A DNA stretch of 64,000 nucleotides, taken from assembly GCA_003282155.1 (NCBI GenBank), contig QBZY01000003.1:27115-91114 (forward strand), read 5' to 3'. Origin of the DNA: Pelagibacteraceae bacterium AG-337-I02 (GTDB taxonomy: Bacteria; Pseudomonadota; Alphaproteobacteria; HIMB59; GCA-002718135). Below, piece by piece: positions 56,814 to 63,382 of this stretch. The notes beneath the pieces are model-generated. The model searched no databases. It was not told where the DNA came from and saw nothing but the letters and a program-made list of their open reading frames with translations. The stretch's first letter is position 1. The number at the start of each line of letters is the position of its first letter. Made by a program: the position numbers and the translations under genes.

Positions 56814-58673
56814 ATGGCAGAAAAAACAAAAGAAAATTTAACATTTCAAGCTGAAGTCAGTAAGCTTTTAGATCTTGTTGCTAATTCTCTTTATAGCGAA
56901 AGAGAAATATTTCTAAGAGAACTAATATCTAACTCTGCTGATGCCTGCGAAAAATTAAGATATCAATCACTATCCAAAAAAAATCTTTTAAAAAATGAAA
57001 AGGATTTAAAAATTAATATCAGAGTTTCAAAAAAGAAAAAAATCATCGAAATTGAAGATAATGGAATTGGAATGTCTAAAAATGAACTGATTGATAATTT
57101 AGGGACTATAGCGAGATCAGGAACTAGTAAATTTATTGAAGCAATGAAAAATAAAAAAAGTAATGATATTTCTGCAATTGGTCAGTTTGGTGTTGGTTTT
57201 TATTCCTCATATATGGTTGCGGATAATGTTGAAGTGCTCTCTAAAGATGCTGAAAATGAAGAAACTAATCTTTGGTCTTCTAATGGAAAAGAAAATTATA
57301 CCATAGAAGAATCTAAAAAAGATAAAAGAGGCACTTGTATTACTCTAAATATAAAGAAAGATGCTGATGAATTTTTAGATTCATTTCGTTTAAGATCAAT
57401 AATAACAAAATACTCAAATTATATTCCTTTTCCAATTTATCTTAAGGACCTTGACAATAAAGAAAAAGAAGAAAAAATAAATGAAGGTAGTCCATTATGG
57501 CTTAAAGATAAAAAAGATATAAAAGAAGAAGATTATAAGCAATTTTATAATAATATTTCATTTAACTTCGATGATCCATTAAAAACTATTCACTATAATG
57601 CTGAGGGTGTTATTAGTTATAAGGCTTTATTGTATTTTCCTACAAACCAACCTATGGATTTATTCAATGCTGATAGGAAAAATAAAATAAAATTGTATGT
57701 TCAAAAAGTTTTTATTACTGATGATTGTGAAGACATAATTCCTAATTGGTTACGTTTTATTCCAGGAGTAGTCGACTCACAAGATATTTCTCTCAATATA
57801 AGTAGAGAAATGCTTCAAAATAATCCTATTATTATAAAAATAAAAAAAGGTATTACAAATAAAATTTTAAATGAAATAGATAACTTAGCTAAGAAAGAAA
57901 AGGATAAATTTGAGACATTTTGGAATAATTTTGGCCCTGTTCTAAAAGAAGGGTTATACGAACATAATGATCATCATGAAAAAATCCTACCGTTATTAAG
58001 ATTTGAAAATTCTTTAAATGATAAAAAAATATCTCTTGAAGAGTACACTAAATTAATGGTTAAAGATCAAAAAGAAATTTATTATTTTGCTAATACTGAT
58101 AAGGATCATATTAAAAACTCCCCTCAATTAGAAGTTTTCACTGATAAAAAAATACCAGTTTTATTTATGGTTGACGCAGTAGATGAGTTTTGGATACAAA
58201 ATGTAAATAAATTTAAAAATTTAGAATTTAAATCAATAACTAAAGGTAAGGTTGATGTTTCAAAAGTTGGTGAAAAATTACGTAAGAAAGACGAAGATAA
58301 AAAAGAAATAGATAGTAAAATCAATGATTTAATTAACGTACTTAAAACAGAGCTTAAAGAGGCTATATCTGATGTTATTGTATCTAAGAGATTAACCAAA
58401 AGCCCAATTCTTCTTGTTGCTGAAGAAACTGGGATGGATATAAATATGGAAAAACTGATGAAAATGCATAATCAAAAAACTCCTGTTTCAAAAAAAATAC
58501 TTGAAATTAATCCAAACCATCCGATGATTGTAAATTTATCTGAAAATTTAACAAAAATTGACCATAAAAAAGCTTCGAATTTAATTTTAGATCAAGCTAA
58601 TATATTAGATGGAAACATTCTCTCAAATCCATCTGCTTACTTAGAAAATTTAACTGAAATTTTTATTAAGTAA
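56814..58673 (+). CDS. htpG: molecular chaperone HtpG (Hsp90)
   Basis: FLRELISNSADA, GQFGVGFYS, 619 aa. Confidence 0.95.
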   Translation: MAEKTKENLTFQAEVSKLLDLVANSLYSEREIFLRELISNSADACEKLRYQSLSKKNLLKNEKDLKINIRVSKKKKIIEIEDNGIGMSKNELIDNLGTIARSGTSKFIEAMKNKKSNDISAIGQFGVGFYSSYMVADNVEVLSKDAENEETNLWSSNGKENYTIEESKKDKRGTCITLNIKKDADEFLDSFRLRSIITKYSNYIPFPIYLKDLDNKEKEEKINEGSPLWLKDKKDIKEEDYKQFYNNISFNFDDPLKTIHYNAEGVISYKALLYFPTNQPMDLFNADRKNKIKLYVQKVFITDDCEDIIPNWLRFIPGVVDSQDISLNISREMLQNNPIIIKIKKGITNKILNEIDNLAKKEKDKFETFWNNFGPVLKEGLYEHNDHHEKILPLLRFENSLNDKKISLEEYTKLMVKDQKEIYYFANTDKDHIKNSPQLEVFTDKKIPVLFMVDAVDEFWIQNVNKFKNLEFKSITKGKVDVSKVGEKLRKKDEDKKEIDSKINDLINVLKTELKEAISDVIVSKRLTKSPILLVAEETGMDINMEKLMKMHNQKTPVSKKILEINPNHPMIVNLSENLTKIDHKKASNLILDQANILDGNILSNPSAYLENLTEIFIK

Positions 58674-59604
58674 CTGAATTTAAAATTTTATTATTATTAA
58701 AAAATTCAACAAACTGTTTAGCAACCATTTCTGCTACAACTATTTGCGCTTCATCAGTAGAAGCAGCAATATGTGGAGTTAAAATTATATTATCTAGATT
58801 ATAAAACCCACTTTCTTCTAAAGGCTCATTTTTAAAAACATCTAATGCAGCACCCTTAATTTCTTTTTTTTCTAGAGCATTTTTAAGATCTTCTTCATCA
58901 ACTAAGTTACCTCTAGCGGTATTTATAATGATACAATTTTTTTTCATTTTCGAAAGATGATTTTTATTCATAATCGGATTACCATCTTTATTGGGTTTAC
59001 AGTGAAATGAAATTATATCTGAGTCTATAATAATTTCATCGATAGAACAAGAATTATATTCAGGAAAGCTATCCTTAATTTTTTCAAAGTATGAAGAAAA
59101 TATTGAAACGTTCATTCCCAATACATTAGATATTTCTGCAACTCTTTTGCCTACATTACCAAAACCTACGATACCAATTTTCTTGCCTTTAATTTCATTT
59201 CCCTTTAATTTCTTTTTTTCCCAAAGACCTTTATGAGTTGTCTCATTGGCAACAGTAATTTTTCTTTGTAATGCAAAAATTAAGCCAATTGTATGTTCTG
59301 CTGTGGCATTTGTATTTCCTCCTGGAGTATTCATTACAATAATATTTTTATTTTTAGCAGCTTCTAGATCAATATTATCTACACCTGCTCCTGCTCTACC
59401 TATAATTTTTAAATTTATAATAGAATCAATTATATCTTTTCGCACTTTAGTTGCAGAACGAATGATTAAACCATCATAATTATCAATTATTTTTTTTAAT
59501 TCTTCGGGAGATAAATTTGTTTTTGTATCAACTGAAATATTATTCTTTGTTAAAATTTCATATGCTATGTTATCTAGTGAATCTGATATTAGTACTTTAG
59601 GCAT
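58666..59604 (-). CDS. serA: D-isomer-specific 2-hydroxyacid dehydrogenase, short (no ACT domain) D-3-phosphoglycerate dehydrogenase by context
   Basis: GIVGFGNVGKRVA, NTARGNLVDE, TPHIAAST. The track ORF extends to 59637. The ATG at 59604 (MPKVLISD) lies 4 nt after the serC stop. Confidence 0.75.
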   Translation of the reverse strand: MPKVLISDSLDNIAYEILTKNNISVDTKTNLSPEELKKIIDNYDGLIIRSATKVRKDIIDSIINLKIIGRAGAGVDNIDLEAAKNKNIIVMNTPGGNTNATAEHTIGLIFALQRKITVANETTHKGLWEKKKLKGNEIKGKKIGIVGFGNVGKRVAEISNVLGMNVSIFSSYFEKIKDSFPEYNSCSIDEIIIDSDIISFHCKPNKDGNPIMNKNHLSKMKKNCIIINTARGNLVDEEDLKNALEKKEIKGAALDVFKNEPLEESGFYNLDNIILTPHIAASTDEAQIVVAEMVAKQFVEFFNNNKILNSVT

Positions 59605-61971: not shown

Positions 61972-62017
61972 AATATAGAAACACCTTTAATTAAATAAAA
62001 AAAAATTTAAACTTAAA

Positions 62018-63382
62018 TTATGCTACTTCAGGAATTTGAGAAATAGATTTACCTATTCCGTCATCATCAATAACATCATCAGCCATTGTCCCATTTAGAT
62101 AATCATCATAAGCTGTCATATCAAAATATCCATGACCACATAAATTAAAGAGAATAGTTTTTGACTCCCCTTTTTCTTTACATTCTAATGCTACATCAAT
62201 AGCACCTTTAATTGCATGGTTTCCTTCTGGAGCAGGAATAATTCCTTCTTGTTTAGCAAAAGTCAGACCAGCTTCGAAACAATCTTTTTGACCATATGCT
62301 TTTGCTCTCATTAAACCAAGTTCATATAAATGACTTAAATGATAAGACATGCCATGGTATCTTAATCCACCAGAGTGATTAGCTGGTGGCAAGAAATTGG
62401 ATCCAAGTGTATGCATTTTAATTAATGGGGTCATTTTTGCCATATCTCCATGATCATAAGTATACTTACCTTTTGTAAAAGAAGGACATGATGCAGGCTC
62501 ACAACCAATTAGATCAATTTTTTGACCACCTCTTAATTGTTGTCCTAAAAATGGAAACATTAATCCAGAAAGATTACTACCACCACCTGTACATCCAACA
62601 ATTATATCAGGATAATCTCCAGCCATCTCCATTTGCATAATAGCTTCATTACCATTTATAGTTTGGTGCATTAAAACATGGCCTAAAACACTTCCAAGTG
62701 AGTATTTTGCTTTACCTCCACTTTTAACTGTTGCTTCTATCGCTTCTGATATAGCTATGCCCAAGCTTCCAGGGTTATCAGGATTTTCTGATAATAACTT
62801 GTTTCCAAAATCAGTTAAATTAGATGGACTAGCGTGACAGTTAGCTCCAAATGATTGCATCATTAATTTTCTGTAAGGTTTATGATCAAAACTAACCTTA
62901 ACCATAAAAACTTCAATATCTATACCAAAGATCTGACCTGCAAAAGCTAATGAACTTCCCCATTGACCTGCACCAGTTTCAGTAAATATTTTACTAATTC
63001 CTTCTTCTTTATTAAAAAAAGCTTGTGGGACCGCAGTATTTGGTTTGTGACTTCCTGTAGGACTAACACCTTCATATTTATAATAAATTTTAGCTGGTGT
63101 GTCTAAAAACTTTTCTAATCTTCTTGCTCTATATAAAGGAGAAGGCCTCCATTGTTTATATACTTCTCTTACTGGTTCAGGAATTTCTATTTCTCTTTCA
63201 GTAGAAACTTCTTGCATAATCAAACTCATTGGAAATAAAGGAGCAAAGTCATCAGGACCAGCTGGTTGTTTAGTTCCAGGGTGTAATGGTGGTGGCGGTG
63301 GACTTGGTAAGTCTGCATTAATATTATACCAAAACTTTGGTGCTTTATTTTCTTCAAGTAAGTATTTAATTGAGTCGCTCAT
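62018..63382 (-). CDS. trpB2: TrpB2-type tryptophan synthase beta-chain-like PLP enzyme
   Basis: 454 aa. TrpB2-specific N-terminal extension (PKFWYNINADLPSPPPPPLHP). PLP lysine in SPTGSHKPNTA. GCTGGGSN glycine loop. Confidence 0.85.
   Translation of the reverse strand: MSDSIKYLLEENKAPKFWYNINADLPSPPPPPLHPGTKQPAGPDDFAPLFPMSLIMQEVSTEREIEIPEPVREVYKQWRPSPLYRARRLEKFLDTPAKIYYKYEGVSPTGSHKPNTAVPQAFFNKEEGISKIFTETGAGQWGSSLAFAGQIFGIDIEVFMVKVSFDHKPYRKLMMQSFGANCHASPSNLTDFGNKLLSENPDNPGSLGIAISEAIEATVKSGGKAKYSLGSVLGHVLMHQTINGNEAIMQMEMAGDYPDIIVGCTGGGSNLSGLMFPFLGQQLRGGQKIDLIGCEPASCPSFTKGKYTYDHGDMAKMTPLIKMHTLGSNFLPPANHSGGLRYHGMSYHLSHLYELGLMRAKAYGQKDCFEAGLTFAKQEGIIPAPEGNHAIKGAIDVALECKEKGESKTILFNLCGHGYFDMTAYDDYLNGTMADDVIDDDGIGKSISQIPEVA

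Follow-up and report, generated by a model that had tools for sequence, protein, structure and literature searches.

A stretch of 64,000 nucleotides (nt) of contig QBZY01000003.1 from Pelagibacteraceae bacterium AG-337-I02, referred to here as the window, carries four genes in a row on the minus strand: trpB2, which encodes a tryptophan synthase beta-like enzyme of type 2, a gene of the DUF1015 family, serC and serA. We found that the association of trpB2 with the DUF1015 gene is real and restricted to some alphaproteobacteria-like lineages, and that it is the DUF1015 gene, and not serA or serC, that keeps closest to trpB2 and recurs with it most widely. No mention of this pairing was found in the searchable literature, and its recurrence, in places independent of serC and serA, appears to be the new element here. 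The cluster and its flanks comprise the following features:

62018..63382, minus strand: trpB2, a TrpB-like pyridoxal phosphate (PLP) enzyme of type 2 with 454 amino acids (aa), according to NCBIfam models
61972..62017, minus strand: AT-rich spacer of 46 nt between trpB2 and the DUF1015 gene, with AAAGGTG 5' of the DUF1015 ATG
60757..61971, minus strand: DUF1015 or SerBK-family gene, 404 aa, with a predicted free-serine-kinase-like fold (PF06245, AlphaFold model, Foldseek)
59597..60760, minus strand: serC, type-2 phosphoserine transaminase, 387 aa (NF002841, TIGR01365)
58666..59604, minus strand: serA, short (312 aa) and ACT-less, of the D-3-phosphoglycerate dehydrogenase (PGDH) type (Pfam, TIGR01327)
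56814..58673, plus strand: htpG, convergent with serA and the downstream boundary of the cluster (Pfam HSP90, E 5e-116)
63481..64000, minus strand: EamA-family transporter gene 5' of trpB2, running off the window end (Pfam EamA, E 2e-18)

An earlier note on this DNA had described four co-directional genes with a 46-nt spacer between trpB2 and DUF1015 and a 4-nt ATGA overlap between DUF1015 and serC. All four minus-strand open reading frames (ORFs) as well as both junctions were confirmed. The 4-nt spacer that it reported between serC and serA was misread: the two genes overlap by 8 nt (ATGCCTAA) and are thus packed more tightly, with the serA ATG at 59604 overlapping the serC stop codon at 59599-59597. 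In the ORF listing, serA begins at a TTG further upstream; translation from the ATG at 59604 yields the typical N-terminus MPKVLISD and a protein of 312 aa, and serA is called from the equivalent ATG in the relatives L001, L006 and L088. The 8-nt overlap recurs in the gene calls of the same three relatives and in the listed ORFs of L121. Judged from the 4-nt and 8-nt overlaps, DUF1015-serC-serA is a translationally coupled unit, and trpB2, located 46 nt from DUF1015 in the window lineage, is probably co-transcribed with it. Co-directionality, short junctions and the absence of terminator-like sites in any of the gene junctions of the cluster are all compatible with a single four-gene operon. 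Promoter-like matches remained at background (41 found versus 33.6 +/- 5.6 expected), and the Rfam scan gave no match with E<=1 in the spacer between trpB2 and DUF1015 and, in the remaining region, two snoRNA matches at chance level. Upstream of trpB2 and in the same orientation, the EamA gene follows after 98 nt, and its frame is open to the window end. At the other side, the 3' ends of serA and htpG overlap tail-to-tail by 8 nt (58666-58673), as they do in L002, L003, L006 and L174, among others, which leaves no space for a conventional terminator between them. A recent transfer of the cluster was considered and rejected, given that its guanine-plus-cytosine (GC) content of 0.27-0.31 is like that of the rest of the window (0.21-0.34 overall) and that the flanking synteny is kept.

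TrpB2 scored 698.9 bits with PRK12391 (cutoff 366) and 605.5 bits with TIGR01415 (cutoff 518.85) of NCBIfam, and the TrpB1 model TIGR00263 reached 136.4 bits, far under its cutoff of 392.45. The best sequence matches in the PDB are Sulfolobus-type TrpB2-like proteins (6hul_B with 452 bits, 4qys_B with 387 and 6hte_B with 386), and every other match scored about 120 bits or lower. Aligned with 6hul_B and 4qys_B, the window protein keeps the motif TGSHK with the PLP lysine as well as TETGAGQWG, the latter of which we take to hold the indole-activating glutamate of TrpB2. By analogy, the window TrpB2 would use O-phospho-L-serine (OPS) as serine donor. The earlier note had stated that TrpB2 proteins prefer OPS, and this is supported by Busch et al. 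2014 as cited in PMC11917138 and PMC12727527: the title of that work names TrpB2 enzymes as OPS-dependent, and the preference over L-serine is known for the enzymes of S. solfataricus, T. maritima and A. thaliana only.

The transaminase SerC exceeded the cutoffs of NF002841 (584.8 bits versus 477) and TIGR01365 (518.3 versus 448.2) of NCBIfam. SerA consists of the Pfam domains 2-Hacid_dh and 2-Hacid_dh_C, and the ASB and ACT domains are absent from its 312 aa. Its top NCBIfam model is the PGDH model TIGR01327, matched at positions 1-308 of 525 with 323.7 bits and thus under the cutoff of 454 because the C-terminal regulatory half is absent; the E. coli-type PGDH (241.6 bits) and glyoxylate reductase (203.6 bits) follow. 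The best model match and the gene context together point to SerA as D-3-phosphoglycerate dehydrogenase. In agreement with the earlier statement that the locus lacks serB, no phosphoserine phosphatase SerB of the haloacid dehalogenase (HAD) type was found among approximately 50 window ORFs scanned with Pfam, three SerB-sized ORFs being without a family match. A search for serB, trpA and trpB1 elsewhere in the genome had been suggested; within the 64 kb of the window, none of them was found among the scanned ORFs. The window also encodes a protein of 187 aa with the histidine phosphatase fold (His_Phos_1; 40695-41258, minus strand), located 17 kb from the cluster. This protein may be considered as an alternative candidate for a phosphoserine phosphatase, although it remained far under all curated cutoffs (52 bits versus 350 for the PspA-type phosphoserine phosphatase) and weakly matched the NCBIfam models of archaeal dPGM and CobC as well.

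The DUF1015 protein matched PF06245 with E 4.6e-67 and 226.7 bits (gathering threshold 25.8) over profile positions 1-323 of 325; a weak DndB-like match was also seen in Pfam. When 106 diverse homologs with 28-62% identity to the window protein were aligned, nine columns were invariant, including the motifs DGHHR and PKST...PK. The window protein carries all of these residues (E117, D204, G205, H207, R208, K383, T385, P389 and K390), and they are kept in every TrpB2-linked and serA-linked DUF1015 protein checked. An AlphaFold (AF2) model built on this alignment reached a predicted local distance difference score (pLDDT) of 95.2 and a predicted template modelling score (pTM) of 0.92. When it was compared with the PDB by Foldseek, the top nine matches were all SerK (5x0b, 5x0e and others), 1vk1 or SbnI (5uje, 5ujd, 6nr6), with E 3e-8 to 3e-6, a probability of 1.0 and template modelling (TM) scores of 0.47-0.60 on the target; the tenth match drops to E 0.01 and a probability of 0.08, so that the first nine are the only significant ones. 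Identity to SerK and SbnI in the structural alignments is approximately 12-14%, and phmmer against the PDB gave no significant match. A profile search listed 1vk1 at E 0.31, which is not significant overall, and paired YIADGHHR of DUF1015 with LIVDGHHR of 1vk1 and PPKST with SPKTT. The modelled fold is that of a free serine kinase and not that of a phosphatase or hydrolase. This suggests that the DUF1015 protein works like a free serine kinase; because significant sequence similarity is absent, we do not file it as a member of the SerK/SbnI family. Among the longer homologs, no fusions with TrpB, SerA or SerC were seen, the sole fusion partner being DUF2062.

A link of this family to serine synthesis has been described before. 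Hofmann 2018 (PMC6110889) proposed a DUF1015 gene in the serA/serC operon of C. difficile as the missing phosphoserine-removing enzyme, and extracts of this organism turn 3-phosphoglycerate into serine (PMC6110889; bioRxiv 10.1101/2024.10.14.618325). In the GapMind 2026 preprint (bioRxiv 10.1101/2024.10.14.618325), the family, which lies together with serA and serC in many genera, was named SerBK; genomes with serA-linked DUF1015 were mostly without SerB, CBO1128 of C. botulinum rescued E. coli serB::kan, and BT1151 of B. thetaiotaomicron was required for the use of L-serine as nitrogen source. The predicted structure was reported there to resemble the serine kinase SbnI. Therefore, a stand-in role of DUF1015 for SerB, linked to serA and serC, is correct but already published. 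The earlier suggestion that DUF1015 is a phosphoserine-related enzyme agrees with these two sources as far as the substitution of SerB is concerned; the phosphatase among its proposals does not agree with the predicted kinase fold.

The window belongs to an alphaproteobacterium of the SAR11 type, as its low GC content and its DUF1015 protein indicate; the nearest named DUF1015, with 95% identity, is from a Pelagibacteraceae bacterium, and the closest GTDB representative is SAG AG-337-F02. SAR11-type relatives share the order EamA-trpB2-DUF1015-serC-serA and the convergent htpG over DUF1015 identities from 96% down to 67-68%, with EamA upstream of trpB2 in L001-L006 and L174. As the cluster is kept in every SAR11-type relative examined, it is not a chance juxtaposition. 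A distant low-GC group (L121, L132, L135, L136) retains trpB2-DUF1015-serC-serA with 41% identity to the window in DUF1015 and 68-70% in TrpB2; no htpG match was obtained in the L121 flanks by tblastn. In another low-GC lineage (L112, L115), trpB2 is followed by a DUF1015 gene of approximately 367 aa and serC and serA are absent nearby; the spacer in L112 is 9 nt, and a convergent mtnA-like gene comes next. The DUF1015 proteins of L112 (4043-5146) and L115 (2811-3878) are shortened and fast-diverging with all invariant residues kept, and L112 and L121 share 82% identity in TrpB2 but just 35% in DUF1015.

The pair also occurs in Rhodospirillales, where the order hflKC-DUF2065-degP-DUF1015-miaA-ilvBNC is fixed (L170-L172). 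In L026, L089 and L169 (GC 0.48) an inserted trpB2 separates degP from DUF1015, in L109 (GC 0.62) trpB2 stands between DUF1015 and miaA, and both arrangements are without serC or serA nearby. Without selection for adjacency, one would hardly expect trpB2 on opposite sides of DUF1015 in an otherwise fixed neighbourhood. In this order the DUF1015 gene keeps its setting between degP and miaA-ilvBNC, with serA and serC not nearby (L169-L172, L089, L109). In Rhizobiales, serB presumably sits beside miaA; if so, DUF1015 of Rhodospirillales would be a positional replacement of serB, which would favour a housekeeping SerB-like role.

Viewed from TrpB2, DUF1015 was the commonest neighbour family in 80 metagenome loci, occurring in 10 of them (9 directly adjacent) with the next family in three at most, a figure that is inflated because a DUF1015-linked TrpB2 served as the reference by which the loci were ranked for similarity. 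ORF-based neighbour calls were unreliable for 24 high-GC loci of this sample, and the reliable count is that of tblastn. Viewed from DUF1015, we fetched the flanks of 79 non-SAR11 loci from species-representative genomes. A serA-like gene was present in 26 of the 79. The sole recurrent neighbours were serA and type-1 serC, and many proteobacterial loci had neither. In the locus L087 (400-2447, GC 0.35, DUF1015 45% identical), grpE and not trpB2 lies upstream of DUF1015 and serC follows directly; serC-linked relatives therefore do not all carry trpB2 here. The tie of trpB2 to phosphoserine genes that had been proposed for the window thus stands as a linkage, but its main partner is DUF1015, and the pair also exists without serC and serA.

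In three relatives a glycine riboswitch aptamer (RF00504, gathering threshold 32) precedes DUF1015-serC-serA: L001 (7869-7953, 70.4 bits), L004 (7868-7953, 64.3 bits) and L088 (42-129, 42.8 bits), whose DUF1015 proteins are 70%, 67% and 63% identical to that of the window, respectively. In L001 and L004 it lies within a spacer of approximately 180 nt after trpB2; the contig of L088 starts 41 nt upstream of the aptamer, so the neighbour on that side is not visible. L001 and L004 have one aptamer each, and by eye the sequence after the aptamer of L088 resembles a second, divergent one. RF00504 is absent from the window, and the spacers without aptamer (window, L006, L007, L173, L174, L176 and the L121 group) measure 32-80 nt. 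A screen for more leaders of this kind covered four additional SAR11-type lineages, whose spacers of 45-77 nt were without riboswitch. The riboswitch would tie the DUF1015-serC-serA block to glycine/serine status in L001, L004 and L088, and its patchy occurrence indicates that the operon boundary differs between lineages. DUF1015-serC-serA is therefore a glycine-responsive unit in its own right, and a four-gene operon could at most be characteristic of the lineage of the window. Accordingly, the shared transcription unit on which the earlier note had built fits the spacing and the lack of terminators, but it is not established and, in sister lineages, the riboswitch splits trpB2 from the ser genes. 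We take COG4198 to be the DUF1015 family. In a metagenome survey of 2007, single-aptamer glycine riboswitches preceded "COG4198, uncharacterized" on five fragments from the Sargasso Sea and serC in one case; the genes under glycine riboswitches in that survey mostly served glycine/serine breakdown (gcvT, sdaA) or were glcB.

SAR11 bacteria are textbook examples of glycine/serine auxotrophy. Isolates of subclade Ia are without complete serABC and depend on external glycine or serine, and a minority of SAR11 genomes carries the pathway (PMC3448164; PMC10030771). The literature thus agrees with the statement in the earlier note that Ia strains are glycine/serine auxotrophs, and for this reason the cluster is lineage-informative. 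A "serACB operon" was reported for HIMB114 of subclade IIIa, and serABC for some genomes of subclades I/II and LD12 (Grote 2012, PMC3448164; Lanclos 2023, PMC10030771). In a 2026 survey of 135 complete Pelagibacter genomes, 129 were scored as having no or an incomplete serine pathway and the remaining six as having a partial one. Clusters with serA and serC but no serB would score as partial, and DUF1015 may be the missing piece.

Taken together, we consider it rather probable that the cluster acts as an OPS hub with reversible flux set by supply, in which the activities, the flux direction and the co-transcription are all inferred. SerA without ACT domain and the type-2 SerC would connect 3-phosphoglycerate with OPS. 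SerBK/DUF1015 would replace the absent SerB by moving phosphate between OPS and serine with a nucleotide as partner, and TrpB2 would condense OPS, as the activated serine donor, with indole to tryptophan. When imported glycine and serine are plentiful, serine would be turned into OPS, which feeds TrpB2 and, via SerC and SerA running backwards, 3-phosphoglycerate; when they are scarce, 3-phosphoglycerate would be converted to OPS and further to serine. A reversible kinase instead of an irreversible phosphatase may be expected to give a larger OPS pool, making an OPS-dependent TrpB useful. Pairs without serC and serA fit a logic of producer and consumer, in which the kinase would make OPS and TrpB2 would use it, mirroring SbnI-SbnA and the archaeal SerK routes.

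Several points weigh against this hub. Gene order is generally conserved among SAR11 relatives, and SAR11 synteny alone is therefore weak evidence; trpB2 is near only one of the 79 diverse DUF1015 loci, and beside the sampling bias mentioned above, approximately 70 of the 80 TrpB2 loci (mostly high-GC) are without DUF1015. The riboswitch in sister lineages demonstrates that separate regulation of trpB2 and the ser genes is possible. When the leaders of L001, L004 and L088 were folded freely and with constraints, the start regions became more or less accessible without a consistent pattern across the three; the sign of the riboswitch (ON or OFF) would show which way the pathway runs. Those SerBK proteins that have been studied by experiment are from Firmicutes and Bacteroidota, whose sampled members are 32-37% identical to the window protein. 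Furthermore, the authors of the GapMind 2026 preprint left the SerBK reaction open and pointed out that a kinase in reverse is thermodynamically unfavourable (bioRxiv 10.1101/2024.10.14.618325).

A purely biosynthetic operon, in which SerA, SerC and DUF1015 make serine and confer prototrophy and trpB2 skims OPS or is a mere neighbour, would be in line with the complementation of E. coli serB by CBO1128, the lack of SerB in most genomes with serA-linked DUF1015 and the formation of serine from 3-phosphoglycerate in C. difficile extracts. The housekeeping setting of Rhodospirillales DUF1015 (degP...miaA-ilvBNC, without serC and serA) and the use of serABC as a marker of prototrophy in the SAR11 literature point the same way, and a riboswitch that proved to be OFF would mean classic end-product control, fitting a SerA that lacks the ACT feedback domain. 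However, the modelled fold and the motifs of DUF1015 are those of kinases and not of hydrolases, BT1151 is needed for serine utilisation, and the genes under glycine riboswitches in the 2007 survey were mostly those of breakdown or glcB. In addition, trpB2-DUF1015 pairs occur without OPS-forming genes nearby and with trpB2 at two different positions beside DUF1015; such pairs are hard to explain if DUF1015 merely drains OPS. We regard this alternative as rather unlikely. A module for assimilation or salvage would reverse the picture, with DUF1015 as a serine kinase whose OPS serves indole salvage by TrpB2 as well as SerC and SerA in reverse, so that the cluster would not determine prototrophy. 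The kinase fold, SbnI that supplies OPS to a PLP enzyme, archaeal SerK that feeds cysteine synthesis and 3-phosphoglycerate, and the location of Desulfurococcales serK next to serA-like and aminotransferase genes all speak for it, as do the pairs lacking serC and serA, the glycine riboswitch 5' of DUF1015-serC-serA in three lineages and the SerA without ACT domain. Yet the serB complementation shows that the opposite direction is possible, the folding of the leaders gave no consistent sign, and the idea overlaps the OPS hub, from which it differs solely in denying the biosynthetic direction; we hold it for possible, if doubtful. On a similarly tentative level, TrpB2 and DUF1015 might form a dedicated two-enzyme module from serine via OPS to tryptophan, a bacterial counterpart of SbnI-SbnA, with the SAR11 ser genes acting mainly as a reversed, glycine-responsive route to 3-phosphoglycerate.

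That the adjacency of trpB2 has no functional meaning and reflects inherited order in streamlined genomes plus a few coincidences is compatible with the synteny of the whole neighbourhood (EamA...htpG, SLT, M20 peptidase) in SAR11-type relatives, with the 78 of 79 diverse DUF1015 loci that are without trpB2, and with Merkl 2007, who found trpB2 without conserved gene neighbourhood outside trp operons. This explanation is improbable in our opinion: the adjacency is found in varied contexts (L121 without htpG match, L112 with other neighbours, the degP/miaA flanks of Rhodospirillales), both gene orders occur, DUF1015 tops the neighbour families of TrpB2 in the sample, and chance adjacency of two single-copy genes is expected at approximately 2/N, i.e. 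about 0.001 per genome. Finally, the beta-replacement that TrpB2 carries out on OPS could be another one, such as the formation of cysteine or one of its derivatives with a sulfur nucleophile, given that OPS-dependent PLP enzymes exist (SbnA, archaeal CysK), that SAR11 depend on reduced sulfur and that the physiological role of TrpB2 is unsettled. The score far over the TrpB2 equivalog cutoff and the conserved TETGAGQWG argue against it, and alternative nucleophiles gained no support here, which makes it very improbable.

Outside the cluster, the window contains some further genes. Three of them at 41463-44460 (minus strand) encode an HpcH/CitE-like C-C lyase, which is malyl-CoA-lyase-like but under the cutoffs, and CoA-ligase subunits; the beta subunit matched malate--CoA ligase (NF010647, 624 versus 604), and the best model of the alpha subunit is succinate--CoA ligase alpha. 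This stretch, the one with the highest GC of the window (0.337), possibly encodes a route from malate via malyl-CoA to glyoxylate that would be relevant to glycine supply. EamA genes occur four times in the window, including the one upstream of trpB2; those at 29902-30780, 30811-31686 and 33395-34288 flank a class-III aminotransferase gene at 32036-33370. A PfkB-family kinase, an Indigoidine_A-like protein and an inosine-uridine nucleoside hydrolase at 49285-52096 look like a set for pseudouridine or nucleoside salvage. Of three ORFs of 262-310 aa, 8329-9261 (minus strand) had no Pfam match and 36713-37501 (minus strand) no match in Pfam or NCBIfam; the ORF 52017-52880 (minus strand), scanned with NCBIfam only, had no match there.

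The proteins of the cluster are abundant in marine data, and their clusters at 90% identity have 541-1,959 members. Provided that DUF1015 completes the pathway, serine synthesis has to be re-scored in an abundant set of SAR11 lineages; if the pathway runs backwards, the genes speak to the carbon flow from glycine and serine instead. Should the two-enzyme module be true, the presence of serA and serC alone would not be a sign of glycine/serine prototrophy, and TrpB2 would receive a long-missing physiological context, the recurrent serine-kinase-like neighbour being a candidate for the direct source of its preferred substrate. The pairings of trpB2 and DUF1015 without serC and serA and the glycine riboswitch in sister lineages offer two natural handles on the direction of SerBK.

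Among known systems, the "serACB operon" of HIMB114 resembles the window in that serine genes are clustered in a non-Ia SAR11 and have been read as a relief of glycine/serine auxotrophy. HIMB114 is tabulated with a canonical serB, whereas the window has DUF1015 in that position. The SerBK loci of C. difficile (CDIF630erm_01130-01132), C. botulinum (CBO1128) and B. thetaiotaomicron (BT1151-1152) share with the window the Pfam family and its invariant residues, short serA together with serC and an SbnI/SerK-like predicted fold; no SerB was found within the 64 kb of the window. In contrast to these sampled members from Firmicutes and Bacteroidota, the window DUF1015 belongs to a separate SAR11-type branch in a rough neighbour-joining tree, its serC is of type 2 (TIGR01365) and most other DUF1015-adjacent serC genes are Aminotran_5 type 1, and trpB2 is attached; the SerBK preprint mentions neither trpB nor SAR11 (bioRxiv 10.1101/2024.10.14.618325). 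The stand-alone TrpB2 enzymes (TrpB2_o) are like the window TrpB2 by curated models, nearest structures and the position outside a trp operon. Conserved partners outside trp operons were not seen for them by Merkl 2007, whereas TrpB2 of the window type has a recurrent partner in DUF1015.

The archaeal ADP-dependent SerK (T. kodakarensis TK0378; P. furiosus 1vk1) provides the best structural matches and shares the motifs DGHHR and PK(S/T)T. According to Makino 2016 (PMC5120207), serK of Desulfurococcales clusters with serA-like and aminotransferase genes, which was read as an assimilation of serine via OPS to 3-phosphoglycerate. SerK differs from DUF1015 in its sequence family and in feeding cysteine synthesis, and a link to TrpB2 was not reported for it. 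In the staphyloferrin B cluster of Staphylococcus aureus, SbnI, a ParB/Srx-like protein with serine kinase fold, stands beside the OPS-using PLP enzyme SbnA, as DUF1015 stands beside trpB2. We assume that SbnA and TrpB2 share the same PLP fold type. DUF1015 is approximately 160 residues longer than SbnI and without a significant sequence match to it at the low identity given above, and the consumer in the siderophore cluster is SbnA with glutamate, whereas in the non-siderophore setting of the window it would be TrpB2 with indole. Despite these differences, SbnI-SbnA may be seen as the closest analogy for the pair of trpB2 and DUF1015.

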